32,000 bases of DNA from Acaryochloris marina MBIC11017 (GTDB lineage Bacteria > Cyanobacteriota > Cyanobacteriia > Thermosynechococcales > Thermosynechococcaceae), in NCBI RefSeq assembly GCF_000018105.1, contig NC_009925.1, positions 6,450,001-6,482,000 of the forward strand, in the 5' to 3' direction. Made by a program: the position numbers and the translations under genes. The notes under the pieces are model-generated. The model was not told the DNA's origin and ran no database searches. It worked only from the letters and a program-made list of their open reading frames with translations. Numbering within the stretch: the stretch's first letter is position 1; the number at the start of each line of letters is the position of its first letter. This document shows, in pieces, positions 11,052 through 27,768 of this stretch.

Positions 11052-11079
11052 AACTGATTCCAGAGCTAAAAGAAAAACT

Positions 11080-11134
11080 TATATAGACTTAAATCTACGT
11101 TTATATAGAAATAAGTATATGAATATCTATATAG
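11080..11134. promoter_or_regulatory. Three TATATAG boxes in the AT-rich ndhF3 upstream region (candidate LysR-type CcmR/NdhR operator or promoter)
   Basis: TATATAG occurs at 11080..11086, 11102..11108 and 11128..11134. The last sits inside the perfect palindrome CTATATAG (11127..11134). Spacings are 22 and 26 bp, and the boxes lie 29-83 bp upstream of the ndhF3 GTG. ATAG-N8-CTAC lies at 11083..11098. Confidence 0.35.
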
Positions 11135-11297
11135 TAATTCTGTAACATAACTTCAAAAAAATCAAACATCTTTTTCTGTCGGCTGAGTTTTTCTACTCAA
11201 AGGGCTACTGTCCTCCTTTGGATAGAACAGATCGGATCAATCGAAGTGGAATTGATCTTCAAGAAAATGTTCCTGATAAATAAAAAACGATGCCCCG

Positions 11298-12788
11298 TTA
11301 GACAACTGTTCCAAACTGAGAAGAGATGGGAAGCGTAATCGTAAAGGTAGAGCCCCTACCCGGCTGACTCTCCACGTCAATTTTGCCTCGGTGGGCTTTG
11401 GTAAAGGCTTTAACAATGGCAAGACCTAACCCTGAACCGTCCGACTGACGTTTACCCAATCGAGCAAACCGATCAAATATGCGGAGCTGTTCTTCTAGGG
11501 TCATACCTTCGCCGTTATCTTTGACCCAAAAAATAACCTGGGAAAACGTTTGCTTGCAGCCCAATTCAATCGTGCCAGAGGCTGGAGTATGCTGAGTGGC
11601 ATTCCTCAGTAAATTCAGCAGCGCTCCCGTTAATCGCTGGCGATCGCCCATCATGGAGCTAGAGCAGTTCAACTGCAGTTGCCAGTCTCGATCAGCCAAG
11701 GCTTGTGCTTTGGTAAACAGTTCGTCCATAAACTGGTTTAAATCAATCATTTCGTATTGAAGAAAATCAGGACGCTCTGATTTGGTCAGGGCAATCATGT
11801 CATTGACTAAGCGGCCCATCCGATCCAGTTCATCGAGAACCAGCTCAATGGTTTCCTCCTGTTCCTTGGGGTCATCTCCCATCAGTTCTAGATGGCCGCG
11901 AACAATTGTAATCGGGGTCCGCAGTTCATGACCCGCATCATTCACAAAGCGACGCTGACTGTTAAAGCTGTCTTGCAGTCGATCCATCATGGCATTAAAG
12001 ACTCTGGCTAAATCAGCCAATTCCCCTGAGCCTTCTGTTGATAATCGTTGAGTTAAATCGGATTCGTTGATGGAGCGGGCTGCGATCGCAAGTTCTCGCA
12101 CCGGCTTGAGTAACCGCCCTGTCACAAACCAGGCCAACAGCAGGGAGATTACAACGACGGCTCCCTCAATCAAAACAAAGGTATATACACTAGCTAAAGC
12201 TTCGTTCTGTTCACCAGCCGTAGCATGGGCAAGGACCATCACACCCATCTGCTCACTGTCTACGATGAGTGGTTCAGCTTTATAAATAATGGTGCCAATT
12301 TCAGGTAGATCCGTCGGTTCCTCTCCCCGTTCAAATTGGTTTAAACTCTCCCATTTTTCATAGAGGTTTGACCCTGGACGCATGGGCTTGAGTAACCGAG
12401 GTGGATTCGCGCGGTAAAAGTCTCCACCAATAATAAAAATAAAAAAATTGTCGTCTTCTGGGAGTTGATTGGCTAAGAAATCATCGGCGAACGTCTCCAA
12501 ATCTTCCACAGATTGATTCGGCTGACGTTCCCAGTTCATATAGGATTCATGAAAGATTTCATGCGCTTCAATCAAATCATTTCGCACCCGCAGAGACACC
12601 TGACTGGTAATAAGCGATTTATAGAGCGGTATGGCAAGCCCTGTGAATATCCCCAATAGCGAAATGTACAGCAACAGAATACGCGTCCGAGTTTGACGAA
12701 AGAACCGTCTGATCACTGAGCGCTGTCGCCGCCCCAAAGGGGAACGTTTGGAGTCAATCACGAAAGGTCCTCTTGATGATCGAGCCAT
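11298..12788 (-). CDS. Sensor histidine kinase (2 TM + periplasmic domain + HAMP + HisKA + HATPase_c)
   Basis: 496 aa with an ATG start. TM helices are ILLLYISLLGIFTGLAIPLY and YTFVLIEGAVVVISLLLAWFV. H-box: NDAGHELRTPIT. N-box: LLNLLRNATQHT. G-boxes: VKDNGEGM and GSGLGLAIV. The start codon lies 1 nt after the stop of the upstream porin-like gene. Confidence 0.9.
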   Translation of the reverse strand: MARSSRGPFVIDSKRSPLGRRQRSVIRRFFRQTRTRILLLYISLLGIFTGLAIPLYKSLITSQVSLRVRNDLIEAHEIFHESYMNWERQPNQSVEDLETFADDFLANQLPEDDNFFIFIIGGDFYRANPPRLLKPMRPGSNLYEKWESLNQFERGEEPTDLPEIGTIIYKAEPLIVDSEQMGVMVLAHATAGEQNEALASVYTFVLIEGAVVVISLLLAWFVTGRLLKPVRELAIAARSINESDLTQRLSTEGSGELADLARVFNAMMDRLQDSFNSQRRFVNDAGHELRTPITIVRGHLELMGDDPKEQEETIELVLDELDRMGRLVNDMIALTKSERPDFLQYEMIDLNQFMDELFTKAQALADRDWQLQLNCSSSMMGDRQRLTGALLNLLRNATQHTPASGTIELGCKQTFSQVIFWVKDNGEGMTLEEQLRIFDRFARLGKRQSDGSGLGLAIVKAFTKAHRGKIDVESQPGRGSTFTITLPISSQFGTVV

Positions 12789-12789
12789 T

Positions 12790-14121
12790 TTAAAACCGAA
12801 ACAGGGTGCGTAGGGTCCCCACCACGATGGGGGACCGATTGGGATCAGGAGCCGTAATCACAACTATGCCAGGCGTAAGGGTAATATGCTCATTCAACTG
12901 AACCTGATAAAACACTTCTAGATGCCAGGCAGGCTGAGCATCTGAAGATACGTGAGGCGGGCGGCCGATAATCAGTCCCCCCAAGGTGCGATCGCGGAAT
13001 AAATTCTTATATCCCAGTGTAAAGGCCCAATTGAAGATATCTGCATGGGGCTGGTTCGACAGATCCGTCGCTGTAGCTCGGGTATAGCCCGTCCAACCCG
13101 ATAGGGTCAGTTGTTCACTGATTTTAGCCGTCCCTTGCAGCCCCACGGAATGGGAATTGATCGCATCGCTTTGTTCCAAAAATGGATCGTTGGCCTGCTG
13201 ACTGCCCGTGCCTGTATCCAATCCGTTTAGGCCATAGGTGTAGAGCAATCCGAAGCGAATAGAATCAGCCGGTTCCAGGGTGAGTTGAGCAAAGGCAACG
13301 GATTCTTCATTGGAAAATACATCCTGATTATCCCCGAGATATCCCAAACTGATATTAATGCGATCGTTAAAGTCATGGGACAACCCAATCCCCGTACTTC
13401 CCCCCTGGCGATACAGAGGATTACGCTGACCAAAGCGAGAAATCGCCCCCCGACTACTGCTACTAAAGAGGGGATTTAAGGGATCAGCAATATCGCTAAT
13501 CGACCCCCCAATTGCTTGGACAAAGACTTCTGTATCCTCTCCCACTGGGAATTGGTAATCCAGACGACTCAGGGAAACTTGATATTGATCTGCTCCCTGA
13601 ATCGATAATCGGGCCAGATCTGTGTCAAACACATCATCGAGTTCAACAACGTTGGTCGTTTGTAGCCGCAGGCGGAATTGATCCTCTCCTGAAAAACTGG
13701 TTTCAAGATTGAGACGAATACGACTACCAAAACTAGGTTCGTTGGAATTTTTAGACTCTTGACGATCACCGGCTGCCTGAATCCATGAAAAGACGGCTTC
13801 ACCACTGAATTCAGTGCTAGAAATTGAATCAGTTGACTCATCTGAAACTGGGATTAACGGTTCTTCGTGTAACTCTGGCCCAGAGCTTTCCCTAGGTTCA
13901 AGCTGCCAAACAGGAATAATGGGTTCTTCAAGTCGCTGCGACTCTGGTACACGGACGGAGGATGGGGCTGTTTCCGCGAGGGCACTAGGGGATTTCTGTG
14001 TCACACCACTCACGACTCCTAAGAACCCACTCCACAGCAGTAGTCGAGTCAAGCCAAACACCGAGAATTGGAAAACTGACCCTCCCTCCAACTGGCTGTC
14101 ACCCCTAGGATGCACAGGCAA
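12790..14121 (-). CDS. Putative outer-membrane beta-barrel porin (OprB/carbohydrate-porin-like), no SLH domain
   Basis: It has a signal-peptide-like N-terminus (GLTRLLLWSGFLGVVSG...SALA/ETAP) and an acidic Pro-rich linker with two copies of EEP(I/L)IPV. After that come alternating beta-strand-like segments and a C-terminal aromatic beta-signal (...TLRTLFRF). There is no in-frame ATG. TTG at 14121 overlaps the upstream gene by 17 nt and GTG at 14115 is an alternative, so the start is uncertain. Confidence 0.55.
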   Translation of the reverse strand: MPVHPRGDSQLEGGSVFQFSVFGLTRLLLWSGFLGVVSGVTQKSPSALAETAPSSVRVPESQRLEEPIIPVWQLEPRESSGPELHEEPLIPVSDESTDSISSTEFSGEAVFSWIQAAGDRQESKNSNEPSFGSRIRLNLETSFSGEDQFRLRLQTTNVVELDDVFDTDLARLSIQGADQYQVSLSRLDYQFPVGEDTEVFVQAIGGSISDIADPLNPLFSSSSRGAISRFGQRNPLYRQGGSTGIGLSHDFNDRINISLGYLGDNQDVFSNEESVAFAQLTLEPADSIRFGLLYTYGLNGLDTGTGSQQANDPFLEQSDAINSHSVGLQGTAKISEQLTLSGWTGYTRATATDLSNQPHADIFNWAFTLGYKNLFRDRTLGGLIIGRPPHVSSDAQPAWHLEVFYQVQLNEHITLTPGIVVITAPDPNRSPIVVGTLRTLFRF

Positions 14122-15244
14122 AAGTTCCTTGTTGAATTAGGGCTGGACCGGCAAAATTCATCGCTTGCAGAATGGGTGCGGGCTGAGTTGTTGGGCAGTG
14201 AACGACGCTGACTCGGCCAGCTATCTGTGACAAGTGCAGCACTTGCTCTGCACCCATAATCTGGCTGATCATCTGTTGCAATAGGTGGGACGGTGCGACC
14301 AACACTCCCGTCATCATGCTCTGCCCTGAGAGGTTGCGACGGTTGAGGGTCCTTAGCCACAGGTGATGAAAATCAGAACAATGGGTATGCAATTGAACCG
14401 TTTGGGGGTGTTCGGACAAAATGGCTTTGCTCAGCCTCTCAGCTGTATCCCCTTGACTGACGCTAAAGCTCAGATCTTGAGGGCTCAGTAAAGTCCGCAG
14501 GGATTCCACAGTCTGAAAACGATGCTCTTCACTCGGCACCAGTAACAACCGTAGTCCCTGTTTGCCTGCTTTTAGCTTGGGAAGCGCTTCTCCCAGATGA
14601 CTGGTATCATTCATGGCTTCTAGGTGGGCTGGTTGACCTTGCCCAGGGAAGCGCAATACGCTGATGCCGCAATTGGATTGCTGCAAGGCTTGAAAATGGC
14701 GGCAGGAAAGTCCCAGGGCAGTTCCCATCAGGGCGCGAATCGTCCCCCCATGACTGACGACTAATAGAGTTTGTCCAGAATGCCGCGGTAGAATCTGTTG
14801 CCAAAACTGACGAGCTTGGTCATAGAGATCTTGAACCGGGCGGCGAACCCCTTGAGGCCCAGTCATTTCAAATAGATGGGGATGTTCCATCCAACAGCGG
14901 TAGTTGGCAGCCATCGTTTCCCGTACATATTGGTAGGGAAGTCCTGCCCAACCGGGAAGATCCACTTCTTTAAGATCGGGGTGAGTTTTTATGGGTATTG
15001 AACGGCACAAGGCAGACTGGATCCCTTGAGCCGTTTGCTGGGTTCGCTGCAACGGACTGGTATAAATGGCAGAAAAAGCAGTCACACGAAGGGCTATACC
15101 CGTTTGATGAGCATCTGCAAGCCCCTTCGCGGTTAAGACAGATTCGTCGCTGGCCCCTTGATACCGACCTTTGTCGTTAAATGTGCTCCGACCGTGGCGA
15201 AGGAGTATGACCTGAGTCGGTGCAGGAGTTTGAGTGTTGGTCAT
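14105..15244 (-). CDS. Histidine phosphatase (phosphoglycerate-mutase superfamily) with a degenerate second domain
   Basis: I place the start at ATG 15244 (MTNTQTPAPTQVILLRHGRSTFN...), which removes the overlap with the upstream GT2. The catalytic RHG motif and a downstream SHGG motif lie in residues 1-220 or so. The C-terminal 160 aa or so resemble a second domain, but the RHG position reads LLLVPSEEH. Confidence 0.8.
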   Translation of the reverse strand: MTNTQTPAPTQVILLRHGRSTFNDKGRYQGASDESVLTAKGLADAHQTGIALRVTAFSAIYTSPLQRTQQTAQGIQSALCRSIPIKTHPDLKEVDLPGWAGLPYQYVRETMAANYRCWMEHPHLFEMTGPQGVRRPVQDLYDQARQFWQQILPRHSGQTLLVVSHGGTIRALMGTALGLSCRHFQALQQSNCGISVLRFPGQGQPAHLEAMNDTSHLGEALPKLKAGKQGLRLLLVPSEEHRFQTVESLRTLLSPQDLSFSVSQGDTAERLSKAILSEHPQTVQLHTHCSDFHHLWLRTLNRRNLSGQSMMTGVLVAPSHLLQQMISQIMGAEQVLHLSQIAGRVSVVHCPTTQPAPILQAMNFAGPALIQQGTFACAS

Positions 15245-15263
15245 CTTTTCTAGACCTCCAAGA

Positions 15264-16340
15264 CTAAACCGTTTTGCTAAATTGAGCTTGTCTAAGGCGG
15301 CGGGCATAGCGATTAAACCAGAAGTGATTTAAAGGACGCTCTAAGGCAATCAACCGCTTTTCTAACCAAGCATTGCCTTTGCCCAGGGTTAAGAATCGGA
15401 CAACCGGCTTGATTAAAAGCTCGTGGCGACGACTGCCTAATCCGGCATAGCGTTTCGTAAAGTATTTGTCTTCAGCCAGATTCCACTTTTGGCGTAGATG
15501 GTCCAAACTGGCCCGGTCCCAAGCATCACTCCAGCGCACCATAAAGTAGGGCAGATCCGACCATTTAAAGTCGGGCAGTTTTAATTGCCCAAACCAGGCC
15601 ATCAGTCCAGCTTTGTTAGAGGCCAGCCCCAGTGTATCCGTGGTGACGATCGCCTCCCTTTCACAGTAGATGTGCCCTCCTGCCTGAGTGACCATAAAGC
15701 AGAAGTCGATATGTTCGCGAGTTGCTAACATGCCTTCATCTAGCAAACCGATGGTGGAAAAGATGTCTCTACGAACCAGCATGCAGTGGAACTCTACATA
15801 GTCACACTGGGTTCGTTGGAGTTGATCTGACACATCTGCGATCGCACGTCCGGTCAAATAGGCTGATTGCTTAATCCGTCGACGGGTCTGACCATCCTTT
15901 ACTTCTGTTTTGATATAAGATTTGCCCCCAGCGTTATGAATCACTTGATGGGCCGGGTTGCCAATACATGTCAAGGGACCAACTACTGTGGCATTCGTTT
16001 CTTCCGCACAGTTGACCAACTGGGTTAACCACCCCCGCTTGACGATCACGTCATTCTCAATAAAGACCACATAGTCGCTATCCGTATGATCAAGTACATA
16101 CCGCAATCCCACATTTCGAGCTTGATTGGGGGAAATATAGTGGTCTGTGGTTAAAAGGGAGAACGACTGCTCTTGGGATTTTTCTTGCAAATAGGTTTGT
16201 ACTGAGGCCGGGGAACACACATCCACAAACACTAAGTCGAAGGGATAATCCGTATTGGCATAGATACTTTCTAAAGACGTTTGAGTATAGCTAAACCGCT
16301 CTCTGGGACCTACAACAAGGGTGACTTTAGGTGGTTTCAT
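15264..16340 (-). CDS. Family-2-like (GT-A fold) glycosyltransferase, paralog A
   Basis: I place the start at ATG 16340 (MKPPKVTLVVGPRERF...), which has SD GGAGGAG upstream. It has the GT2 N-terminal pattern (VTLVVG...FVDVCS...SPNQARNVG...VVFIENDV). The DxD position reads END. The C-terminal extension WSDLPYFMVRWSDAW...KRYAGLGSRRH... is shared with the gene at 18052..19227. Confidence 0.8.
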   Translation of the reverse strand: MKPPKVTLVVGPRERFSYTQTSLESIYANTDYPFDLVFVDVCSPASVQTYLQEKSQEQSFSLLTTDHYISPNQARNVGLRYVLDHTDSDYVVFIENDVIVKRGWLTQLVNCAEETNATVVGPLTCIGNPAHQVIHNAGGKSYIKTEVKDGQTRRRIKQSAYLTGRAIADVSDQLQRTQCDYVEFHCMLVRRDIFSTIGLLDEGMLATREHIDFCFMVTQAGGHIYCEREAIVTTDTLGLASNKAGLMAWFGQLKLPDFKWSDLPYFMVRWSDAWDRASLDHLRQKWNLAEDKYFTKRYAGLGSRRHELLIKPVVRFLTLGKGNAWLEKRLIALERPLNHFWFNRYARRLRQAQFSKTV

Positions 16341-16555
16341 AGTCTCCTCCAAGGAGTGATGGCTTATGTAGAGATAAAGCATTCCTTCCCCGAGCAATCC
16401 TCAATTAGCTTTTCTGAGAATCATGCAAATGGCTGGGGACTGGCAGATAGGTTCAGTTGTATGGGGATGAACGGAAAAAGTGAGCGTTATTCAGAACTCG
16501 GGTTGTCCCTTAGGGTCTATTGTTCAATTTGTCTTTCAAGGAAACGTGAAAGCGC

Positions 16556-16583
16556 CATGAGAAAACTTTCATCTTGAGGAGAG
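16556..16583. promoter_or_regulatory. Two 14-bp-phased CATGAGAA-type boxes upstream of GT2 paralog A
   Basis: The sequence is CATGAGAAAACTTTCATCTTGAGGAGAG, with the CAT trinucleotides at 16556 and 16570. It lies about 215 bp upstream of ATG 16340. It carries the same octamer and the same 14-bp phasing as the array at 26313..26382. Confidence 0.4.
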
Positions 16584-16591
16584 CATTGACT

Positions 16592-17536
16592 TTAAGCTGC
16601 AACCGGTAATTTGGTCAGACGAACCAATCGTTCTCGTTCTGCTGAAGATAAGCAAATATTTCCTGTTGCTGCATTTGCTTGGGCTTGTTCAGGTGACTTT
16701 GCACCTGGTATAGCAACGGGCGATACCGGATGAGAAATAACGTATCGCAATGCTGCGGTGACCATCTCTGATCCAGGCTGCAAAGCTGTTTTAAGTTGTT
16801 CAACCTTGGCTAATTTGCGTTCTAGTTTGGCTCGTGTGCGATCGCTGTCATACCATTCCGATCTCACCGTATCTGTAAAGACGGTCTGGGAGGAATATTT
16901 CCCCGAAAGCAGCCCTTTATGCAAAGGACCTCGGGCCAGTACGCCAATGCCATGTGCTTGGCAATAGGGTAGAAACTCTTTCTCTGGATTGCGGCTCAGC
17001 AGGGAATAATCCACTTCCACCACGCTGCAGGTATGGTTGACGTTGAACCGCTTCAGGACATCCAATCGATCCGTGGAAATGCCGTAGGCGCGGATGGTTC
17101 CTTCAGCTTTCAGCCGCTCAAACCCTTCTAAGTAAACGCTTGGGTCCTCAATTTTGCCTTCATGACAGAGCATGACATCGATATAGTCAGTCTTTAATCG
17201 ATGCAGGGAGGCATGGGTGCAAAGCCGTACCATATCAACCGTGGTCATAGGAACCGTCTGACCACTGCGGCGTCCCCATCGTCCAATTTTGGTGACTACA
17301 TGAACTTGGTCCCGAATCCCGTGGAGCGCTTTTCCCAACCGTTCTTCTGATAGTCCAGCTGGAATACCGTAGGATTCAGCGGTATCAAAGATATTGACAC
17401 CATTGTCGAAGGCACTACGGACAGTGGATAAAGCAGTGGCTTCATCAATTTGTCCCCACTGGTTGCCGATGTTCCAAGTGCCCATGCCAATGGCAGAGAC
17501 TTGCAGATTAGTGTTACCTAGTTTTCGATAGAGCAT
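16592..17536 (-). CDS. Aldo/keto reductase family oxidoreductase
   Basis: 314 aa with an ATG start. AKR signature regions are present: GMGTWNIG, FDTAESYG, the HVVTKIG catalytic Lys region, LCHEG, and AIPGAKSPEQ near the C-terminus. Confidence 0.9.
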   Translation of the reverse strand: MLYRKLGNTNLQVSAIGMGTWNIGNQWGQIDEATALSTVRSAFDNGVNIFDTAESYGIPAGLSEERLGKALHGIRDQVHVVTKIGRWGRRSGQTVPMTTVDMVRLCTHASLHRLKTDYIDVMLCHEGKIEDPSVYLEGFERLKAEGTIRAYGISTDRLDVLKRFNVNHTCSVVEVDYSLLSRNPEKEFLPYCQAHGIGVLARGPLHKGLLSGKYSSQTVFTDTVRSEWYDSDRTRAKLERKLAKVEQLKTALQPGSEMVTAALRYVISHPVSPVAIPGAKSPEQAQANAATGNICLSSAERERLVRLTKLPVAA

Positions 17537-17857
17537 ATTCGTTAATCCTTGGATTTGTGAGGTTGAAACTGAAAATGGGTTGCTTGTAAAAAATGCTCAA
17601 GTAGAACTGCAGCAAAGCAATAGTTGTTCGAAATCTTGCAGCCTTCTTATGCTGCATTCAAACCTACTAGTCCCCAATTCTGTGGTGAGAAAACAGGATT
17701 CTGTTAATTCCCTTCTATGATGGGGACCAGTGCAAGAATTGTGTTGAGCCAATCTAGACAGAAGTCGTGGCTTAATTTATTGAATCGATACCCAACCAAA
17801 ATTTATTTAAAGAGGGAATTCACGCCAGTTTTTGTAAACGAGTCAATGGAGCCCCCG

Positions 17858-18055
17858 ATGCAAATTGTTGAAGCTGTATTTGATGGAGAAGTATTTCTTC
17901 CTGATGCTCCCCTAAATCTGCAAGAAGGGGCGCGGGTTCGAATTACAGTTGAATTAATTGAGAAACCTCAGATAAATGAATCTCCTTCGTTTCTTAAAAC
18001 AGCTCAATCTCTGCAATTAGAAGGGCCATCGAACTGGTCCGAACAAATCAATTAA
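17858..18055 (+). CDS. DUF104/AF2212-like antitoxin-family small protein (orphan, no adjacent toxin)
   Basis: I prefer the start at ATG 17858 (MQIVEAVFDGEVFLPDAPLNLQEGARVRITVE...), which is the typical N-terminus of this family (65 aa). The ORF-track start at 17717 adds 47 atypical residues, and ATG 17846 is also possible. Its stop overlaps the convergent GT2 stop by 4 nt. Confidence 0.55.
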   Translation: MQIVEAVFDGEVFLPDAPLNLQEGARVRITVELIEKPQINESPSFLKTAQSLQLEGPSNWSEQIN

Positions 18056-19227
18056 TGTTGCATTAACGAGTGCTTCCCACTTTCATCAGATAGAGATTGC
18101 TGTCTTATTTCAGCATTACTCCCTGTTTGGGGGAGCAACTTAGGAATATCGTTGTTGGGATGTCGTAAGCCAGATATCCGCTGAGCGTTAGCCAAACGAT
18201 TGGCATGGCGCTTAGAGAACCAGCGATTGAACCGTTTCTCTAGATTAAAGAGCTGTTGCTCAATCCACCGGGTTACGTGTTTACCAAGAAAAGCGAACTT
18301 TTTGGCAATAGGTCGAATTAGCACTTTGCGTCGTCGTTGTCCCAATTTCTGATACCGTTTTTGGAAATAACGACTCTCTTGCAGTCCCCATTTTTGCTGG
18401 TAATGGAGCAGATTACTGAGTTCCCAAGCATCACTCCAGCGCAGCATAAAGTAAGGTATATCGCTCCACTGCAAAGCCGGGGCAGGTGGATGGGTTAAGA
18501 AGGTAACGACGGAGTCCGGTTCCAGGTAAATTAGTCCACCCGCACGGGTGACCATCATGCAGAAATCGAGGTACTCTTTCGTACAGGAAAAGCCTTCGTC
18601 TAAGGGGCCAATTCGATCAAAGATAGCCGTCCGCACCAACATGGCATGAAACTCTACAAAGCCTGTCGGCTGGCGATAAAGCTGATCGCAGACTTCGGCA
18701 AGGGGCTGATTCTGATAGGGAGTGCGTTCTTGAATTTTCCATCCCCCTGTATAGTCCAGGGTGCCAGAAGGATTGAGTTCACCTCGGGCAAAGGCACTGT
18801 AGGCAGCTGGTGCCATATAGGTGCCCCCCGCACAGTGGACAATGGTATGGACAGGGCGATACTGGCAGACTAAGGATCCGACTACAGTGGCCCCTGTTTC
18901 CTCTGTGCAGTTCACTAATTTCTCCAGCCAGCCTGATGTAAAAACGACATCGTTATCAACAAAGACCACATAGGGGGTTGTGACGTACTGGAGTCCCAAA
19001 TTTCGGGCTTGATTTGGAGATAAGTAGGTCTCTGATCGAACGACTTGAAACCGGCGAAGCAGAGATTGAAATTCAAGATTCTGTCGAAGTTTACGAGGAG
19101 AGTTATTGTCTACATAAATCAACTTGAAAGGGACAAAGGTATTTTCGAAAAGGCTTTCTAGAGATTCACGGGCAAACTGAAACCGTTCTCGGGGAACGAC
19201 AATAATCGTGACTTTAGGGTTTGACAT
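18052..19227 (-). CDS. Family-2-like (GT-A fold) glycosyltransferase, paralog B
   Basis: 391 aa with an ATG start. Pattern: KVTIIVVPRERF...YVDNNS...SPNQARNLG...VVFVDNDV (a DxD motif is present). It has the same C-terminal extension as paralog A (WSDIPYFMLRWSDAW...KRYQKLGQRRR...) plus about 45 extra polar C-terminal residues. Confidence 0.8.
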   Translation of the reverse strand: MSNPKVTIIVVPRERFQFARESLESLFENTFVPFKLIYVDNNSPRKLRQNLEFQSLLRRFQVVRSETYLSPNQARNLGLQYVTTPYVVFVDNDVVFTSGWLEKLVNCTEETGATVVGSLVCQYRPVHTIVHCAGGTYMAPAAYSAFARGELNPSGTLDYTGGWKIQERTPYQNQPLAEVCDQLYRQPTGFVEFHAMLVRTAIFDRIGPLDEGFSCTKEYLDFCMMVTRAGGLIYLEPDSVVTFLTHPPAPALQWSDIPYFMLRWSDAWELSNLLHYQQKWGLQESRYFQKRYQKLGQRRRKVLIRPIAKKFAFLGKHVTRWIEQQLFNLEKRFNRWFSKRHANRLANAQRISGLRHPNNDIPKLLPQTGSNAEIRQQSLSDESGKHSLMQH

Positions 19228-19371
19228 GGGTATAACCTTGAAATCGATGAGATGTAGCTATTGAGGATCTCCCCTCTTGGGAGGAATCAGGGGTAAGCGA
19301 ATCGGAATTCTAATGACCCGCCCTGCGGGTATCCTTCACAGGAGGGAAAAGTTCGATTTTGACGAAAGTCT

Positions 19372-21207: not shown

Positions 21208-21256
21208 ATTGGCTCACTCCAAACGGTTGTGGCGGAAGGGGGATAGAATAGGCCCC

Positions 21257-22474
21257 TTAGACGAGAGAAAGGGTTTTAGGCGCAGCAGTCCCCAAAACTT
21301 GTTCGTAGACTTGTTGCCATTGGCGTTGTTCAACCGATGGGGCCATTTTCTGGAGGACTGTTTCTCTAGCAGCTAATCCGAGTCGTTCGCGGAGTTGAGG
21401 CTGGGTTATCAGGGATTTTAGGGACTGGGCTAGGGCAGCACTATCGGCTGGACTGACCACTAATCCATTCACGTTGTCTTCCAGAATTTCGCCAATGGCA
21501 TCGACATGGGTGCCGACCACTGCTTTAGCCGCCAGCATCGCTTCGAGTAAGGCATTAGGGCAGCCATCATGGAGGGAGGGGATGGCAAAAATATCCATAT
21601 AGGGCAGGTAGGCTAAAGCTTCTTGACGGCTGACTTTACCGGTAATCACAATCTGGTCGGCTAAACCGCTGTCCTCAATCACTTGCAGCCAGTAGTCGCG
21701 CTCTTTGGCAACGAAATCACCCACAAATAGCAGGGTTAATGGGGTACTGAGTTTCAAAGATTGGCAGGCATCCAGCAAGTATTCCAAACCTTTCTTGTCC
21801 CGGAAACTACCAACAGAGCCAATGACGGTTCCCTGGAGTTTGTGGGCTAGTGCTGGCTGAGGTAAATTGCTGAAATCCAGGGGTGCGATCGCATTCCAAA
21901 ATGCCGATGATTTAGCCCGAATACTAGGAACTAAAGCACGAGCCCGCTGCATTAAATCTCTGCTCACAAAGGTGGTCCAAGCAGAATTTTCTAGAGTCCA
22001 AGTTATTTGACCAAACTGCTGGGGACTAAAGGCATGCTTGTGCAGATCCGCGCCTCGCACGCTGTTAATAACAGGAATTCCGCCCTCTTGTCCTAATAAC
22101 GTCGTTAGGAACCCCATTTCGTTAATAAAAAAGGCATGGAGGGCATCAAACTGATATTGCCGCTGCAACAGCTGAAGCAGTCCGTATAGATCGCAGAAAT
22201 AGTCTTGTTCCTTCGCCTGGGTTGACCGGACAGCAGGCTGCAAGCGGTGAACAGTCACCCCATCTTGCTGAGTGGTTTGACAGCTAGGGCGTTGGAATTC
22301 TCCCGCTGCAGCCTGGGCACGCTGTTCGCGGAATACAGCCCGAAAAACTGCAACATGGACATCAAAACCTAGATCGATCAGCATATGGGCAATGCGTTGA
22401 ACCGACTCGCCCACACCGCCAATATCAGGTGGGAATTCCAGAGCAGTGATACAAATCTTGCGTTTCATAATCAT
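21257..22474 (-). CDS. GT4-family (GT-B fold) glycosyltransferase
   Basis: The N-terminus is ICITALEFPPDIGGVGESV. The C-terminal domain has PSLHDGCPNALLEAMLAAKAVVGTHVDAIGEILED (an EX7E-type motif). SD AGGAG spacing favours the third codon (ATG 22468) as the real start. Confidence 0.85.
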   Translation of the reverse strand: MIMKRKICITALEFPPDIGGVGESVQRIAHMLIDLGFDVHVAVFRAVFREQRAQAAAGEFQRPSCQTTQQDGVTVHRLQPAVRSTQAKEQDYFCDLYGLLQLLQRQYQFDALHAFFINEMGFLTTLLGQEGGIPVINSVRGADLHKHAFSPQQFGQITWTLENSAWTTFVSRDLMQRARALVPSIRAKSSAFWNAIAPLDFSNLPQPALAHKLQGTVIGSVGSFRDKKGLEYLLDACQSLKLSTPLTLLFVGDFVAKERDYWLQVIEDSGLADQIVITGKVSRQEALAYLPYMDIFAIPSLHDGCPNALLEAMLAAKAVVGTHVDAIGEILEDNVNGLVVSPADSAALAQSLKSLITQPQLRERLGLAARETVLQKMAPSVEQRQWQQVYEQVLGTAAPKTLSLV

Positions 22475-22493
22475 GTTCTCCTAACAGGTCTAC

Positions 22494-23663
22494 TTATCGA
22501 GCCAGGGCAACCGTCTGATCACAAAGCTGGCGCAAGCGCTTGGCCGTGTTTTCAGAGCCCTTGAGATTAATGGCATGGGAGGGTTTAGCTGTATGTAAGT
22601 GTTGGAGGATGGCATGGGCCAAAGCTGAGGGGGAAAGCTGGTCAGGGGACAACACCTCAACGGCCCCCAGTTGGGCCAGTCGAGAGGCCCGGAGCCATTG
22701 CTCATCTGCTTGGTTTGGGGAAGGGGAAGGCAGGATCAGAGACCGAACCTGAGAACTCAACACATTCATGGTGGTGTTGTATCCTCCCAGGCTGATGGAT
22801 AAATCGGCCCCATAGAGGTAATCCATTAAATTCGGGGTAAATCGTTGTAGGGTGATGTTGGACTGAGAAGAAGTTAAAGTCTTAAGGGAATGGAACTCCG
22901 ACTCCGACATAAATGGTCCAGCAAAGGCATAGATCTGGTGAGGAATAGCATGGTGCAGAAGGGGACCCACCTCACCAATAGCCTTTAGCAAAGAATAACC
23001 GTATCGCCCGCCCCCCACGCTGGCCACAATCCGAGGGGACTTTAGAGCCTGTTGCTGTACGAACGAAGTGGCTAGAGATTGAGCCACATACCCGGTGTAA
23101 AAGACTTCGCAAGTTAGGGCATGGGCGGAGGGGAAGCAAGCATCTAGGGATTGGAGATTGCGATCGCAATGGCAAAGCACTAAATCATAGAACTGCTGAA
23201 TTTGATCTAGAATCCGAGCCTGCTTTCGAGCCAGTCCCTTTTCACTCATGGATTGGGTCATGATCAGATCTCTGAGACTGCAGACCACTTTGACTTGTGC
23301 TGCTTTAGCCCGCTCCAACAAGGGCAGCAATTCGAACGCCATCTTGTACTTACTAAAGGGGAAGCACTCAGTAATCACACAGTCTGGCTGGAATTGTTCG
23401 AATAGGCCAAGAAGTCTTTGTCGACGAGCGATCTTTACTGATTCAACTGATTGATTCAGGGCAATCAATTCACCTGCTTCTTCCCTAAGAGCGGGGAGAT
23501 AGACCACCTCCACACCATCAGGAACTTCAAACTGATCAATGGGCTCTCCACCAATCACCAGACAAACCTGAAAGCTTGGAACTAAACTACGAATAATTTC
23601 AGTACTGCGGACCAGGTGGCCCATTCCCGCTAAATACTGGCAGTAAAATAAGATCTTCTTCAT
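22494..23663 (-). CDS. MurG/GT28-like GT-B glycosyltransferase (COG4671-like), tandem paralog 1
   Basis: 389 aa with SD GAGGAAG. The N-terminus is MKKILFYCQYLAGMGHLVRS. Later motifs: VCSLRDL, VGGGRYG, ADLSISLGGYNTTMNVL. It is clearly paralogous to the next two genes. Confidence 0.75.
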   Translation of the reverse strand: MKKILFYCQYLAGMGHLVRSTEIIRSLVPSFQVCLVIGGEPIDQFEVPDGVEVVYLPALREEAGELIALNQSVESVKIARRQRLLGLFEQFQPDCVITECFPFSKYKMAFELLPLLERAKAAQVKVVCSLRDLIMTQSMSEKGLARKQARILDQIQQFYDLVLCHCDRNLQSLDACFPSAHALTCEVFYTGYVAQSLATSFVQQQALKSPRIVASVGGGRYGYSLLKAIGEVGPLLHHAIPHQIYAFAGPFMSESEFHSLKTLTSSQSNITLQRFTPNLMDYLYGADLSISLGGYNTTMNVLSSQVRSLILPSPSPNQADEQWLRASRLAQLGAVEVLSPDQLSPSALAHAILQHLHTAKPSHAINLKGSENTAKRLRQLCDQTVALAR

Positions 23664-23680
23664 CTGACTTCCTCAGGCGG

Positions 23681-24865
23681 TTAAGCCGCGACAGCGGGAT
23701 GGTTGTCATAAGCGAGGGAGCGCACTCGCTGAGCCGTTTTCTGTACCCCATCCAGATCAAATCGAGTGGATTGAGGTTTGGAATTTAGAACTATTTCTAC
23801 CCGTTGAGCTAGACGTTCAGGGGCTACATCAACTTTTTGCAGCATCTGAGCCACCCCAAGCTCGTCTAATCGGCGGACTCGCATCGTTTGTTCTTGGTCG
23901 TCGTTGCCTGTAAAGGGCAACATCAGGGCATTGACCCCTGTGGTCAAAATATTCATCGTGGTGTTGTACCCCGACATGCTGACGGAGAGATCCGCCTGCT
24001 CCATATAGGCGAGTAGGTTGGGAGTATAGCGATGAATATGTAGGTTATGACAGTCTCGGCCTGCCTGTTTTAATTGCCAAAACACTGACTCAGGAATAAA
24101 AGGTCCAGCAAACATCTGAATATGGTGGGGAATGCGCGTTGACAAGTATTCCGCTGCACCAACCATGCCCCTCAGCAACTCATGTCCAAATCGACCACCT
24201 CCCACACTGACGAGTATCATGGGAGCCTGTCGGCTCAAGGCCCATCGATCCACCAATGTCAGTCGATTATTTTCGGGTTGTTGGGCCACATAACCCGTAT
24301 AGTGAACCTCACAATTGAGATCCTTAACCCGAGAGAAGCTATCTTCCAGGGGATGTAAGTTGGGGTCTCCATGAATCAGTAATTGATCAAAATATTGATT
24401 CATCAATCGACAGATTTTAGCCTCATGGCGGGCCTGGTCTTGCTTGGTCACCACAATATCGCGCAGGCTACAGACCACTTTGGTACCACTGGCCTTAGCG
24501 GCTTCCATTAAGGGAATAAGTTCAAAGGAAAACCGCCGTCGACCAAAGGGGAAGAGTTCCATCATCAATACATCGGGCTGAAAAGTTTCTATTTGGTTAA
24601 GGAGCAAGTGTTTACGGGTCTCCTGCACAACCTCCAAACTCAGGGACTGATCTACTGGACGCAGTTCACGGAACTCCGTGTCCGTTTTGATCGCTGGTAA
24701 ATTGACAACAGTGACGCCATTGGGGACTTGAAAATTTTGAATCACTTCCCCCCCATTGATAAAGCAAATCTCAAAGTCTTCCACTAGGCCCCGCACAATT
24801 TCCATACTGCGGATCAGGTGCCCCATACCCAGAATGTGTTGGCAATAAAACATCAATTTTTTCAT
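23681..24865 (-). CDS. MurG/GT28-like GT-B glycosyltransferase (COG4671-like), tandem paralog 2
   Basis: 394 aa. Motifs: MKKLMFYCQHILGMGHLIRS, VCSLRDI, VGGGRFG, ADLSVSMSGYNTTMNIL. It is the closest match to paralog 1. Confidence 0.75.
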   Translation of the reverse strand: MKKLMFYCQHILGMGHLIRSMEIVRGLVEDFEICFINGGEVIQNFQVPNGVTVVNLPAIKTDTEFRELRPVDQSLSLEVVQETRKHLLLNQIETFQPDVLMMELFPFGRRRFSFELIPLMEAAKASGTKVVCSLRDIVVTKQDQARHEAKICRLMNQYFDQLLIHGDPNLHPLEDSFSRVKDLNCEVHYTGYVAQQPENNRLTLVDRWALSRQAPMILVSVGGGRFGHELLRGMVGAAEYLSTRIPHHIQMFAGPFIPESVFWQLKQAGRDCHNLHIHRYTPNLLAYMEQADLSVSMSGYNTTMNILTTGVNALMLPFTGNDDQEQTMRVRRLDELGVAQMLQKVDVAPERLAQRVEIVLNSKPQSTRFDLDGVQKTAQRVRSLAYDNHPAVAA

Positions 24866-24907
24866 GACAAATATCCAGAAATTTGAATTACAGAAATGTA
24901 GCTGCCC

Positions 24908-26107
24908 TTACGCCAAAGCCGGTTCTCGATCAGGGGGGCGAAGGAATAGGTTGGATAACTGATTCGCAATATTAGGTAAACCATTGAAATCGAGTTCTAA
25001 AGATGGGGCAGCTCGATCCTCTAGTTGGGCGATGACCGCTTGCATTAAGGATTTCGGCTGTAGATGATTGGGATGAATCGCCCGAATCAATCCGTTGTGC
25101 ATAAACCGTTCTGCCCGAATCAGCTGTTCCTGGGAAGGGGTAATTCGAGGAACCACAACTGTACGTTTGTCCAGAGCTAAGATTTCAGTCAAGGTGTTGT
25201 ATCCTCCCATGGAGACAACAGCATCCGCAGCATCTAAATAACCAATTAGATTGTCCGTAAATGCTTGAACTTCGACACCAGAGTATTGCAAGGCTTGTGT
25301 TTGGATATCCTGCTGCTGAGATAAGGGCATCTCTGGACCGCAGAGAATAACACTTCGGACCTTCACCTGATTTGGCAGGTATTTCAATCCTGCGAGGTAA
25401 GCTTTCACCAGAGGATAACCATCTTCTCCTCCACCTGGAGTCACTACCACCAACTTCTCTGAAGGCTTTATCCGCAGGAACCAGCGCAGTTCCATTCGAT
25501 TAAGCCCCTGAGAAGATTTACGTATATAGCCGCAATAATGGACCTTTTTCGCAATCGGTAATGGGAATTGGTACTCTTGAGCAACATCAAATAGCTCAGC
25601 CATACCTACCACTAGGACTTGGTCATACCAAGATTGGATCGCCTGGTAATATCCCTGTCGTTTCCATTCGCCAATCGTTTTAACAGGACTATCCAGAATA
25701 TCCCTAAGGAGAAGTACTTTTTGGGTCTTTGGTTGGTGAGTTTCAAGATGTTCTAGGGTGCTCAGTAATTCTTTCTGAATCCCATAGGGCTTTTTGTCAA
25801 CAAGCAACACATCTGGTTTAAAGTGCAGCGCGGCTGAATGAATTAAGTGGGAGCGCCACTTTAGAGTTTCTTCTAACTCTGTTCCCAAGTATTTTGCGAA
25901 TAAAGTTCCTGACTGTCCTCGATTAAGGCAAGGAAGTTTGATGTAATCCAAGCCTTTAGGTAGCCGAAAGGCCTGCAGCATCGGTGAACCAGATACCAGT
26001 AAAATAGATAGGTCTGTTTGGTCCTTCAGCAGGTATTCACAGATAGAAAGCATTCTGCGGAGATTGCCAAGACCGAATGCGTCATGAGAGTAAACCATCA
26101 GTCTCAT
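24908..26107 (-). CDS. MurG/GT28-like GT-B glycosyltransferase (COG4671-like), tandem paralog 3 (most divergent)
   Basis: 399 aa with SD GAGGA 9 nt upstream. Motifs: MRLMVYSHDAFGLGNLRR, LLLRDIL, PGGGEDG, ADAVVSMGGYNTLTEIL. It is the first gene of a tightly spaced five-gene run (gaps of 42, 17, 19 and 49 bp). Confidence 0.75.
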   Translation of the reverse strand: MRLMVYSHDAFGLGNLRRMLSICEYLLKDQTDLSILLVSGSPMLQAFRLPKGLDYIKLPCLNRGQSGTLFAKYLGTELEETLKWRSHLIHSAALHFKPDVLLVDKKPYGIQKELLSTLEHLETHQPKTQKVLLLRDILDSPVKTIGEWKRQGYYQAIQSWYDQVLVVGMAELFDVAQEYQFPLPIAKKVHYCGYIRKSSQGLNRMELRWFLRIKPSEKLVVVTPGGGEDGYPLVKAYLAGLKYLPNQVKVRSVILCGPEMPLSQQQDIQTQALQYSGVEVQAFTDNLIGYLDAADAVVSMGGYNTLTEILALDKRTVVVPRITPSQEQLIRAERFMHNGLIRAIHPNHLQPKSLMQAVIAQLEDRAAPSLELDFNGLPNIANQLSNLFLRPPDREPALA

Positions 26108-26153
26108 TGAACGGTCCTCAAAGAATTAGGTCAGTCGATAAAAGGGAATATAG

Positions 26154-26252
26154 TTAAACTGTTTGAAGCTGACGGTCTGATTTAATCTTTGGCAGGACTG
26201 GAGTTAGACGCCCTATTCCTACATATCCAGTACCAATTACACAAACTTTCAT
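26154..26252 (-). pseudogene. Remnant of a UDP-glucose 6-dehydrogenase-family gene (N-terminal Rossmann segment only)
   Basis: My own minus-strand translation gives MKVCVIGTGYVGIGRLTPVLPKIKSDRQLQTV*. The first 12 residues are the canonical Ugd N-terminus with GxGxxG, which I recall for cyanobacterial Ugd as M(R/K)VCVIGTGYVGLVTG. Similarity then collapses and a stop follows at codon 33. It ends 46 nt upstream of GT paralog 3. Confidence 0.35.
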
Positions 26253-26312
26253 AAATAATGAACCTCTCCTAACTGCGTTGTTCAGTTATCTACACCCTGA
26301 CAAGGCGGAGTT

Positions 26313-26382
26313 AAGGTTCAATGAAACTAATGTGAGAAAGGGTTCATGAGAACAGTTTCATGAGAAAGCTTTCATAGAAAGC
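26313..26382. repeat. Tandem array of five 14-bp units (consensus about GTTTCATGAGAAAG) in the leader/promoter region of the GT operon
   Basis: The units read on the + strand are: AAGGTTCAATGAAA / CTAATGTGAGAAAG / GGTTCATGAGAACA / GTTTCATGAGAAAG / CTTTCATAGAAAGC. TGAGAA (or its remnant) starts at 26333, 26347, 26361 and 26375, which is exact 14-bp phasing. The array lies 206-275 bp upstream of ATG 26107. Confidence 0.6.
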
Positions 26383-26455
26383 GTTTTAAGGGCTGGTTAA
26401 TATAACAACACCTCAACGTCTCACTGTTTTGAAGAACAAGAATAGATTGACAGAT

Positions 26456-26812
26456 TTATGAATCGGCGAGATGTCGCTGAATCGTTTCTATTAATTCAGA
26501 GAATTGAAATGGCTTACTGATAAAATCTGTAGCTCCAGAAGCCAAAGCCAACTCGTCTTGATCCACAAAAGCAGTAATTACAATAATCGGAACCGTAAAT
26601 CCCCGTTGACGTAAGGTTTGGAGTACGGTCCAACCACTGATAATAGGTAGCCCCAAATCCAACAACACAACATCAAACGCTTCCAGATTGGCTTGGTCCA
26701 ATGCCTGCTGACCATCAGTCACCAGTGTCGATTGATAGCCATGCTTGAGTAGTCCCTTTTCTACAAAACGGGCTATGCGCTCTTCATCTTCAACTAGGAG
26801 AACCCGCTTCAT
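26456..26812 (-). CDS. Single-domain (CheY-like) response regulator receiver
   Basis: I place the start at ATG 26812 (MKRVLLVEDEERIARFVEKGL...), giving 118 aa. The acidic pocket (EDE), the phospho-acceptor context (VVLLDLGLP) and the conserved SKPF are present. There is no output domain. The receiver resembles that of the adjacent OmpR-type regulator. Confidence 0.85.
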   Translation of the reverse strand: MKRVLLVEDEERIARFVEKGLLKHGYQSTLVTDGQQALDQANLEAFDVVLLDLGLPIISGWTVLQTLRQRGFTVPIIVITAFVDQDELALASGATDFISKPFQFSELIETIQRHLADS

Positions 26813-26909
26813 ATGGAATAGAAGTGATGCGTCAGTACCAATACTCCCTTTAGGCCGAAGCACTACAAAGTGTATTTATATGAAGCTAGCTCAAACAGCC
26901 CTTAAAGAA

Positions 26910-26927
26910 CATGAGAATCTTCTCATG
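26910..26927. promoter_or_regulatory. Perfect palindrome CATGAGAA-TC-TTCTCATG between the two response-regulator genes (operator and/or terminator hairpin)
   Basis: The arms are 8 bp with a 2-bp centre. It begins 14 nt downstream of the OmpR-type gene stop and lies 98 bp upstream of the receiver gene ATG. On the minus-strand RNA it would form a 7-bp stem with a 4-nt loop followed by UUCUUUAA. It shares the CATGAGAA octamer with the array at 26313..26382. Confidence 0.5.
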
Positions 26928-26940
26928 CAGTAAATTGGAC

Positions 26941-27609
26941 CTAAGTCTTTAACCGATACCCAACCCCACGAACGGTTTCAATAAGTGAGTTGCCGAGCTT
27001 CTTGCGCAAATAGCCAACGTAAACATCAACGATATTGGAACCAGGATCATAGTCATATCCCCAGACCCGATCCAAGAGTTGCTGCCGACTGAGGACCTGC
27101 CCAGGGTGACGGAAAAATGTTTCTGCCAGAATAAACTCTCTGGCTGGCAGTTCGATCCATTGATCATCCACTTTGGCCTTACGAGTACGCAGATCTAGCA
27201 CCACATTATGGGCCGTCATTGTCATCGTCTCAGGAGGAGTGCCAATAGACACTGTTCTCAGTCGAACTCTAACCCTTGCCAATAACTCTTCAAACCGGAA
27301 CGGCTTTGTCATATAGTCGTCCGCTCCTCCTTCAAGTCCAGAGATTTTATCTTGAATATCATCTCTGGCGGTCAAAATGATGACAGGGAGTACAGAACCT
27401 TGACCTCTCAAATCAGCTAAAACTTCTAGCCCATCTCTTCCGGGTAATCCCAAATCTAGTATCAGTAGCTCAAACCCATCACTTAAAGCGAAGGATAAGG
27501 CTTCATGGGCATTTTCTACCGTAGTCGTAGCGTATCCGTGGCTCTTTAAACCTTTCTCTATAAAGGATGCAATTCTAGGTTCATCCTCTGCGATCAGAAT
27601 ATGTGCCAT
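26941..27609 (-). CDS. OmpR/PhoB-family DNA-binding response regulator
   Basis: I place the start at ATG 27609 (MAHILIAEDEPRIASFIEKGL...). It has a receiver domain (LLILDLGLPGRDG, TKPF) and a winged-helix output domain (LPAREFILAETFFRHPGQVLSRQQLLDRVWGYDYDPGSNIVDVYVGYLRKKL...VRGVGYRL). Confidence 0.9.
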   Translation of the reverse strand: MAHILIAEDEPRIASFIEKGLKSHGYATTTVENAHEALSFALSDGFELLILDLGLPGRDGLEVLADLRGQGSVLPVIILTARDDIQDKISGLEGGADDYMTKPFRFEELLARVRVRLRTVSIGTPPETMTMTAHNVVLDLRTRKAKVDDQWIELPAREFILAETFFRHPGQVLSRQQLLDRVWGYDYDPGSNIVDVYVGYLRKKLGNSLIETVRGVGYRLKT

Positions 27610-27768
27610 CGATAGTGGGCAGTTGTTTAACAATGACTACTTCTTAGACGATCATAATCACTGATACAGTTCCTCGACCATAAAGCCTGCTAATTTCTTT
27701 TTTCCAATACCTGACAGTTACAATTATGAATATCAATAAAGTCTTGAGAAACGATGAGCCAATTGCCA

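Follow-up and report, generated by a model that had tools for sequence, protein, structure and literature searches.

What is made and exported by the block of glycosyltransferase (GT) genes at positions 11298-27633 of a 32,000-nucleotide stretch of the Acaryochloris marina MBIC11017 chromosome (NC_009925.1, positions 6,450,001 to 6,482,000; assembly GCF_000018105.1)? The whole stretch is called the window here. An earlier reading made from the letters alone (the sequence-only reading) had described this block as a glycoconjugate assembly and export locus bracketed by two-component genes. The comparison of related loci supports the view that the block, including its two-component genes, is one conserved functional unit. 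It also supports the classification of the cluster as a non-canonical, co-regulated glycoconjugate locus, an undescribed variant of known glycan-cluster logic. Our main reading is that one regulon would assemble, in the cytoplasm, a defined hetero-oligosaccharide or a glycoside that bears one, and export it across the inner membrane; a probability of about 0.5 is assigned to it.

Families were assigned by Pfam and NCBIfam scans of the open reading frames (ORFs) in the window. All genes named in the sequence-only reading are present and in the order given: from the right, an OmpR-type response regulator, a receiver-only response regulator, three related GTs (GT28a, GT28b and GT28c), a GT4 enzyme, an ABC exporter, a GT2 enzyme (GT2a), a DUF104 gene on the opposite strand, an aldo/keto reductase (AKR), a second GT2 enzyme (GT2b), a histidine phosphatase (HisPhos), a porin and a sensor histidine kinase. 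The count was corrected from 17 genes (16 on the minus strand) to 14 (13 on that strand), beside which there is the remnant of a UDP-glucose 6-dehydrogenase gene (ugd). Six GTs lie inside the interval instead of seven; a WecG/TagA-type GT (28686-29495, plus strand) lies outside. The gaps of 42, 17, 19 and 49 bp between GT28a, GT28b, GT28c, GT4 and the exporter gene are exact by coordinates, and the phosphatase, porin and kinase genes do abut or overlap. The proposed paralogies also hold, with sequence identities of 44% between GT28b and GT28c, 26-28% between GT28a and these two, and 44% between GT2a and GT2b. The GT products are identical in MBIC11017 and on the A. marina chromosome AP026075.1 (GCA_024347835.1).

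Related loci were retrieved through homologs of GT28c, with one genome scanned per species; this gave 45 loci, in which the window proteins were placed by tblastn. Because GT28c was used for the retrieval, its own presence in the loci is no evidence, and weight is given only to the other genes that occur with it. The loci span Acaryochloris, Thermosynechococcaceae, Leptolyngbyaceae, Pleurocapsales (Hyella, Myxosarcina, Pleurocapsa), Pegethrix, Drouetiella, Elainella, Phormidesmis, Leptothoe and Leptolyngbya sp. JSC-1, and protein matches add Synechococcus sp. PCC 7335, Rivularia sp. PCC 7116 and Coleofasciculus. A nine-gene core (GT28a, GT28b, GT28c, GT4, ABC, GT2a, AKR, GT2b and HisPhos) is complete in 14 of the 22 loci of at least 18 kb, and most of the missing genes fall at contig ends. 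Among all 45 loci, GT28a and the ABC exporter were each found in 34, GT28b in 37 (median identity 67%) and GT4 in 39 (median identity 70%). The aldo/keto reductase is the most conserved gene of the cluster (median identity 74%); orthologs at least 70% identical to it were traced to the sources and contigs that also carry the cluster loci.

The two-component genes accompany this core. The kinase and at least one regulator adjoin it in 15 of the 22 long loci, in agreement with the earlier claim that they belong to the block. Orthologs of the OmpR-type regulator adjoin the cluster in 20 of the 45 loci (median identity 65%), the receiver-only regulator occurs in 19, and orthologs of the kinase in 20 (median identity 52%), mostly divergent from GT28a. 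The usual arrangement is regulator, receiver, and then the kinase divergent from GT28a. Three gene orders were recognized. The first is that of A. marina, also found in many marine Leptolyngbya-like genomes; in the second (Pegethrix, Drouetiella and JSC-1), GT2b and GT4 are moved up and the exporter gene is moved down; in the third (Pleurocapsales), an OprB gene stands beside the exporter gene. The synteny check proposed in the sequence-only reading, covering both the block and its two-component ends, thus returned the same gene set in 45 loci under three orders. In addition, two diverged copies of the whole cluster were seen in one Acaryochloris metagenome-assembled genome (MAG; loci L005 and L007) and in Pegethrix bostrychoides (L025 and L032).

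That the same gene set persists in 45 loci through rearranged orders argues that the block is not a chance neighbourhood of unrelated co-oriented genes. Consensus scans for promoters and terminators over 11000-28700 found fewer sites than in shuffled controls; this background-level result, which leaves the transcription units undefined, is a point in favour of a chance neighbourhood. The retention of the set in distant lineages and the operator shared among them, described below, make this explanation extremely unlikely.

The shared operator is a palindrome with the consensus CATGAGA-N4-TCTCATG, whose half-sites are repeated at a 14-bp spacing. Upstream of the biosynthetic genes, in the 348-bp spacer between the receiver gene and GT28a, which contains CGCTTTCTATGAAAGCTTTCTCATGAAACTGTTCTCATGAACCCTTTCTCACATTAGTTTCATTGAACC, there is an operator array (26317-26380, minus strand); it starts with the imperfect palindrome TATGAAA-GCTT-TCTCATG (TATGAAA-N4-TCTCATG) and continues with TTCTCAYNAA units every 14 bp. 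A second copy found by the pattern scan, the perfect palindrome CATGAGAAGATTCTCATG (26910-26927), lies between the two regulator genes. Pairs of TCTCAY at a 14-bp spacing occur nowhere else in the window. In most loci the element recurs in front of GT28a or, if there is a ugd gene, in front of ugd. Of 34 upstream regions, 23 contain the 8-mer CTCATGAA, and in 20 the three-unit score is above the 99th percentile of random locus segments. The degenerate palindrome has 86 occurrences (a count that includes both strands and A. marina duplicates) in 803 kb, or 1.6 Mb over both strands, against about 3 expected by chance. The 41 loci from outside A. marina hold 27 palindrome sites, all intergenic, and 20 of these lie 100-225 bp upstream of GT28a or ugd. 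Other sites are located at the junction of the regulator and receiver genes (L014, L045, L025 and L032) or at rearrangement breakpoints (upstream of the exporter gene in L032 and of GT28c in L012). These distributions are strong sequence evidence for a cis-element shared by the cluster loci. As the conserved operator precedes both the first GT gene and the receiver gene, it supports the two-component control that had been proposed for the block.

The protein predicted to bind the palindrome is the OmpR-type regulator of the cluster itself (26941-27633, minus strand; probable start 27609, 222 aa), which carries Response_reg and Trans_reg_C domains. Members of the CopR/CusR/SilR group bind palindromic boxes, and the nearest NCBIfam subfamily of this regulator is cztR_silR_copR, with 189 bits against a cut-off of 279. 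We know of no published motif like the CATGAGA-N4-TCTCATG operator. The receiver-only regulator (26456-26863, minus strand; 118 aa at 26456-26812 in the public annotation) has the Response_reg domain only. The sensor kinase (11298-12788, minus strand) has HAMP, HisKA and HATPase_c domains and two transmembrane segments (residues 35-53 and 196-214), and the loop of about 140 aa between them probably lies outside the membrane. The receiver and winged helix of the regulator and the HisKA and HATPase_c domains of the kinase place the system in the OmpR/PhoB family, and none of the curated equivalogs (RppA, NblR, RpaB, PhoB and CopR) reaches its cut-off for the two-component proteins.

The genes next to the core in the relatives are informative about the sugars. 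The unassigned ORFs of all loci were clustered and then scanned against Pfam and PDB. A ugd gene is directly upstream of GT28a in 12 loci, and an epimerase-like gene of the short-chain dehydrogenase/reductase type follows the phosphatase gene in 11. The solved relatives of the latter include a Klebsiella enzyme (5u4q, E 4e-131), 6zl6/6zla and MoeE5; 5u4q was named a dTDP-glucose dehydratase by its depositor, and 6zl6/6zla and MoeE5 are UDP-glucuronate 4-epimerases. In the window, only a ugd remnant of 32 codons is left (26154-26252, minus strand), in which the first 12 codons are joined to about the last 20. Its translation is MKVCVIGTGYVG|IGRLTPVLPKIKSDRQLQTV*, and in Acaryochloris sp. IP29b (L006, L007) an intact Ugd is encoded there; the remnant has the appearance of a deletion inside the gene, between two YVG-coding repeats. 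A different, partly decayed ugd copy is found in L005. The sequence-only reading had reported no intact nucleotide-sugar gene. This holds for the block; the comparison indicates, however, that the missing gene is a recent lineage-specific loss, with the remnant kept.

Because the relatives carry both ugd and a gene resembling UDP-glucuronate 4-epimerase, the ancestral product very likely contained glucuronic acid (GlcA), galacturonic acid (GalA) or both. The best reading of these genes is that uronic acid is part of the product at least in the relatives, and the product is probably acidic, a point overlooked in the sequence-only reading. Two further recurrent genes were found: a heparinase II/III-like protein is encoded between the exporter and GT2a genes in three loci (L010, L014 and L015; 14428-16614 in L015), and a small secreted acidic protein of about 125 aa with the motif ADTRIRGEFEYN and no Pfam match is encoded between the reductase and GT2b genes in seven loci (for example L015 19351-19737 and L028 16700-17077).

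The six GTs of the block belong to three groups. The first is formed by the trio GT28a (24908-26107), GT28b (23681-24865) and GT28c (22494-23663), all on the minus strand, of which GT28a is the divergent member. The earlier label "MurG/GT28-like" is right for the C-terminal domain, where Glyco_tran_28_C matches all three (E 1e-10 to 1e-12; 2.4e-12 for GT28a and 1.4e-11 for GT28b); however, the N-terminal Glyco_transf_28 domain has no match, and the TIGR01133 murG model, with a cut-off of 250 bits, scores GT28a and GT28b at only 26-32 bits, and GT28c is absent from its listed matches. The scans therefore do not place the trio in CAZy GT28/MurG. A profile search against PDB sequences gave YjiC, UGT109A1 and MurG, which match the C-terminal nucleotide-sugar domain only. 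A structural model of GT28c (predicted local distance difference test score, pLDDT, 87; predicted template modelling score, pTM, 0.86) was compared by Foldseek; CalG1, CalG4, OleD and YjiC (GT1) and MurG were matched about equally (E 1e-13 to 1e-16), with template modelling (TM) scores of 0.53-0.64 and identities of 13-18%. The model agrees with an inverting GT-B fold of the GT1/GT28 type, and the trio is, as far as the fold indicates, an inverting GT-B family of its own close to GT1 and GT28, and its acceptor class is not readable from the fold.

Two alternative products are touched by this result. The candidate of the sequence-only reading was a glycoglycerolipid: the GTs would build an oligoglycosyl, partly uronic chain on diacylglycerol, and the ABCB-type exporter would flip it to the outer leaflet. 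The GT28 and GT4 families do include enzymes that glycosylate diacylglycerol, such as MGD and YpfP (GT28) and the GT4 glucuronosyl-diacylglycerol synthases; the exporter has a lipid-flippase fold, and genes for UDP-GlcA supply exist in the relatives. However, the trio shares only the C-terminal domain with GT28, six distinct GTs are too many for the glycoglycerolipid pathways known to us, and the reductase, the phosphatase and the porin would be left unexplained. The diacylglycerol candidate is thus weakened by the GT28 result and by the two conserved enzymes for which it has no role, and we consider it clearly unlikely. In the second alternative, GT1-like enzymes would attach sugars to a small hydrophobic aglycone synthesised elsewhere, and the pump would serve for export or self-resistance, much as in clusters for natural products or biosurfactants. 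The top structural matches of the trio are indeed natural-product GT1 enzymes (CalG1, CalG4 and OleD), and ABCB pumps commonly export glycosylated natural products. On the other hand, no polyketide synthase, non-ribosomal peptide synthetase, terpene or other scaffold gene recurs in any locus, and the GT2 and GT4 content together with the uronic-acid genes resembles glycan assembly instead of tailoring; a glycosylated specialised metabolite is therefore very unlikely.

The GT4 enzyme (21257-22474, minus strand) is a retaining GT-B protein with Glycos_transf_1 and Glyco_trans_4_4 domains. Its closest solved relatives are the BshA enzymes (E 3.5e-15), which use a small-acid acceptor. GT2a (18052-19227, minus strand) and GT2b (15264-16340, minus strand; called as 358 aa in an ORF that extends to 16397) are GT-A enzymes with long, basic C-terminal helices. 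The C-terminal motif WSDxPYFMxRWSDAW that had been noticed in them is nearly invariant in the alignment, as W(S/T)D-PYFM-RWSD-W. This GT2 family reaches beyond the cyanobacteria, with 717 representatives at E < 1e-30; the contigs around the distant relatives are 3-6 kb long, too short for a transfer of function. The best match of the GT2a model, to polypeptide GalNAc-transferases, has a TM score of about 0.45 and was read as generic GT-A similarity and not as a sign of a protein acceptor. Searches of solved structures with the GT2 enzymes, GT4, the reductase and the exporter gave generic family matches and no substrate assignment. No transmembrane segment is present in any of the GTs, the reductase or the phosphatase.

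The exporter (19372-21207, minus strand) is a half-size ABCB-type protein with six transmembrane helices plus a nucleotide-binding domain. The ABC_membrane (PF00664, 158 bits) and ABC_tran (PF00005, 134 bits) matches and the six hydrophobic segments agree with the ABCB/type IV exporter fold, and Sav1866, TM288 and MsbA are matched at E 1e-85 to 1e-97. None of the more specific models reaches its cut-off: the scores are 441 bits against 602 (TIGR02203) and 366 against 867 (PRK11176) for MsbA, 377 against 725 for HepA (NF045513), 188 against 1000 for PglK, and 365 against 733 and 279 against 585 for the glucan exporters. The porin (12790-14121, minus strand) belongs to the OprB family of carbohydrate-selective porins (PF04966, 83 bits against 22.9; por_somb, NF033921, 254.5 against 100); no Pfam family besides OprB was reported for it, and no match to the surface-layer homology (SLH) domain. 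OprB genes are found inside the cluster in 6 of the 45 loci, among them L007 and the Pleurocapsales loci L019, L020, L035 and L048. The "dedicated outer-membrane channel" of the sequence-only reading is thus an optional part.

The scans bear out the earlier report of missing machinery. No match to Wzx/Wzy, Wzm/Wzt, outer-membrane polysaccharide export (OPX) proteins, a chain-length regulator or a priming transferase was found among the large window ORFs scanned; and no priming transferase, Wzx, Wzy, ligase, polysaccharide co-polymerase (PCP) or OPX family recurs in the flanks (up to 10 kb) of the 45 loci. Judged from these window ORFs and flanks, the cluster belongs neither to a Wzx/Wzy/PCP/OPX pathway nor to an ABC-2 pathway (Wzm/Wzt, KpsMT). 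The lack of a recurrent priming transferase, polymerase, ligase and OPX protein fits a non-canonical acceptor.

A polyprenol-linked route might nevertheless be served by unlinked genes. A priming transferase encoded elsewhere would start an undecaprenyl-diphosphate-linked oligosaccharide, the six GTs would extend it at the membrane, the ABCB protein would flip it as PglK or MsbA do, and an unlinked ligase, oligosaccharyltransferase or polymerase would attach the glycan to lipopolysaccharide (LPS), protein or polymer. The trio fold fits GT1 and MurG alike, the exporter has MsbA-type flippases among its matches, and the basic C-terminal helices of the GT2 enzymes suggest peripheral membrane binding; a distant member of the GT2 family also lies beside a GT4 gene and a Polysacc_synt (Wzx-type) gene, and a WecG/TagA-type GT is encoded 1 kb from the cluster in A. 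marina. However, the WecG/TagA-type gene is a neighbour in only 1 of the 45 loci, the exporter stays below the PglK, MsbA and HepA cut-offs, the priming transferase, ligase, polymerase and chain-length regulator do not recur in the flanks, and the strictly conserved reductase and phosphatase would have no role. Both the lipid-linked assembly and the later attachment of the glycan are possible, although on the unlikely side.

These two enzymes are specific to the cluster and conserved like the GTs. The aldo/keto reductase (16592-17536, minus strand) is a clear member of its superfamily (Aldo_ket_red, PF00248, 183 bits) with an intact D51-Y56-K83-H125 tetrad. Its closest solved relatives are the AKR11 proteins IolS and YhdN (E 5e-38), which give no substrate assignment. 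The phosphatase (14105-15244, minus strand; ORF to 15307) belongs to branch 1 of the histidine phosphatase superfamily (His_Phos_1, PF00300, 156 bits), with RHG at residues 37-39 and SHGG at 185-188, and does not reach the equivalog cut-offs (PspA, 118 bits against 350). It also has a C-terminal domain of about 150 aa that is kept in all orthologs (alignment to about residue 385) and has no match in Pfam or PDB. A degenerate second phosphatase domain in the C-terminal 160 aa was considered and is not supported, as a BLASTP comparison between the halves of the protein yielded E = 0.99. Since lipid-linked pathways have no use for the reductase and phosphatase, which are conserved like the GTs, we favour a small acceptor derived from a sugar phosphate.

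In the pathway that we propose, the kinase would use its 140-aa loop to sense a cue from the envelope or from outside and would phosphorylate the OmpR-type regulator. The phosphorylated regulator would then bind CATGAGA-N4-TCTCATG and switch on the operon and the receiver gene; the receiver-only regulator is probably a phosphate sink or modulator. The reductase and phosphatase would make or finish a small non-polyprenol acceptor (a polyol or sugar acid) from a sugar phosphate, either by reduction of an aldose phosphate followed by dephosphorylation, or by glycosylation of a phospho-acceptor that is then dephosphorylated, as GpgS and GpgP do. This would correspond to the synthase/phosphatase logic of glycoside solutes. 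GT4 is the candidate for the first transfer, and the other five single-copy, non-membrane-spanning GTs might add one residue each, including GlcA or GalA. The finished molecule of about six sugars would be exported by the ABCB pump, and the OprB porin, where present, might give passage across the outer membrane. The non-lipid nature of the acceptor, taken by itself, is a tentative part of this scheme, possible and not yet probable. Taken in full, the scheme would give many cyanobacteria a so far unrecognised way of making an anionic oligosaccharide glycoside that is secreted or periplasmic, with a reductase/phosphatase primer, six one-step GTs without a lipid carrier, ABCB export with or without OprB, and its own two-component and operator control; in this complete form it is doubtful and rather unlikely.

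Several points weigh against the regulon reading. What goes beyond a conserved and co-regulated gene set, including the product and the acceptor, is inferred, and the pairing of the operator with its binding protein is likewise predicted. GT28c served for the retrieval, and many of the loci are contig-truncated MAG fragments. In the window strain, ugd is deleted and no epimerase gene is present, so that uronic acids would depend on unlinked genes. The exporter resembles drug pumps as much as it does lipid flippases, and the porin is absent from most of the 45 loci. Moreover, the C-terminal helices of the GT2 enzymes are amphipathic as well as basic, which hints at membrane or lipid-linked substrates, and the single distant GT2 relative with a Wzx-type flippase and a GT4 neighbour points in the same direction.

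Other genes in and around the block were not counted as members. The AF2212-like/DUF104 gene (17717-18055, plus strand; Pfam/NCBIfam) was rejected as a pathway member: it corresponds to the antitoxin of a PIN toxin-antitoxin insertion, and a sister strain has this insertion intact. The insertion lies between the GT2a and reductase genes; the sister-strain locus (L002 15021-15660) keeps the PIN gene, whereas the window keeps the antitoxin-like ORF only and no PIN gene. The right flank (27769-32000) encodes an acylphosphatase, the WecG/TagA-type GT and a GH38 alpha-mannosidase of 1041 aa, all three rejected as cluster members, as they are not conserved beside the cluster outside Acaryochloris. 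A 635-bp AT-rich spacer (28051-28685, GC 0.36) is part of this flank, and a DDE_3 transposase gene and a helix-turn-helix (HTH) gene follow just beyond it in the full chromosome (L001 763-1778). On the left are the ndhF3-ndhD3-chpY operon of an inducible CO2-uptake complex, with chpY for the CO2 hydration protein (6251-11051, minus strand), then a fasciclin-domain protein gene (5770-6195, minus strand), a probable toxin-antitoxin pair formed by a Gp49-like (HigB-type) toxin gene and an XRE-type HTH gene (4467-5158, minus strand), and a gene for the large subunit of glutamate synthase (113-4291, plus strand) that is cut off at the window start. Rfam and tRNA scans of the window found nothing.

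A description of this cluster was not found in the open-access literature searched by gene-family combinations, COG4671, AM1_63xx tags and cyanobacterial UDP-sugar genes, and none of the closest analogues is a family match. The heterocyst envelope polysaccharide (HEP) island of Anabaena, with HepA and HepK, also combines several GTs with a fused MsbA-type ABC exporter in a cyanobacterial glycan locus. The HEP system is also under the receiver-only regulator DevR. The island has the priming transferase HepC, whereas none is found in the present cluster; it lacks equivalents of the reductase, of the phosphatase and of the GT1/28-like trio, and most carriers of the present cluster form no heterocysts. 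A passage of PMC13555669, citing Zhu et al. 1998, also places the HEP system under the control of a histidine kinase. In the Campylobacter pgl system, several soluble or peripheral single-action GTs likewise build a defined heptasaccharide that is moved by the half-size ABCB transporter PglK; however, its locus includes the priming enzyme PglC and the oligosaccharyltransferase PglB, and neither was found in the present loci. NdvA and ChvA, also MsbA-type exporters, move the lipid-free cyclic beta-1,2-glucan to the periplasm and are a precedent for a soluble product; this glucan is made by one giant processive synthase, in contrast to the six separate GTs here.

For the priming step, the nearest likeness is the mycobacterial methylglucose lipopolysaccharide (MGLP), for which a GT acts on a phosphorylated small acceptor and a histidine phosphatase follows. 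GpgP (Rv2419c), a member of the histidine-phosphatase superfamily, dephosphorylates the GT product, and the glycoside primes the oligosaccharide (PMC3240985). The match of the present phosphatase to GpgP is weak (E about 2e-4), its conserved C-terminal domain is extra, no GT81 GpgS is encoded in the cluster, and MGLP stays intracellular. The Gram-positive pair YpfP (GT28) and LtaA, with a GT-B enzyme on diacylglycerol and a dedicated flippase, corresponds to the glycolipid model of the sequence-only reading; it differs in its single processive GT and its flippase of the major facilitator superfamily (MFS), whereas the present cluster has six GTs outside the GT28 models and an ABC exporter.

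The surface and secreted glycans of cyanobacteria shape biofilms, crusts, mats and symbioses, but beyond a small number of model strains few of the pathways behind them have been defined. The present analysis delimits a 12-gene regulon with a precise operator that is widespread in benthic, epiphytic and crust-forming lineages and fits none of the three canonical polysaccharide export routes. If its acceptor is not lipid-linked, the cluster would represent a new way to make and export a defined oligosaccharide; and if the primer-based route is true, it would define a new class of envelope or extracellular oligosaccharide, and a new assembly logic for bacteria.

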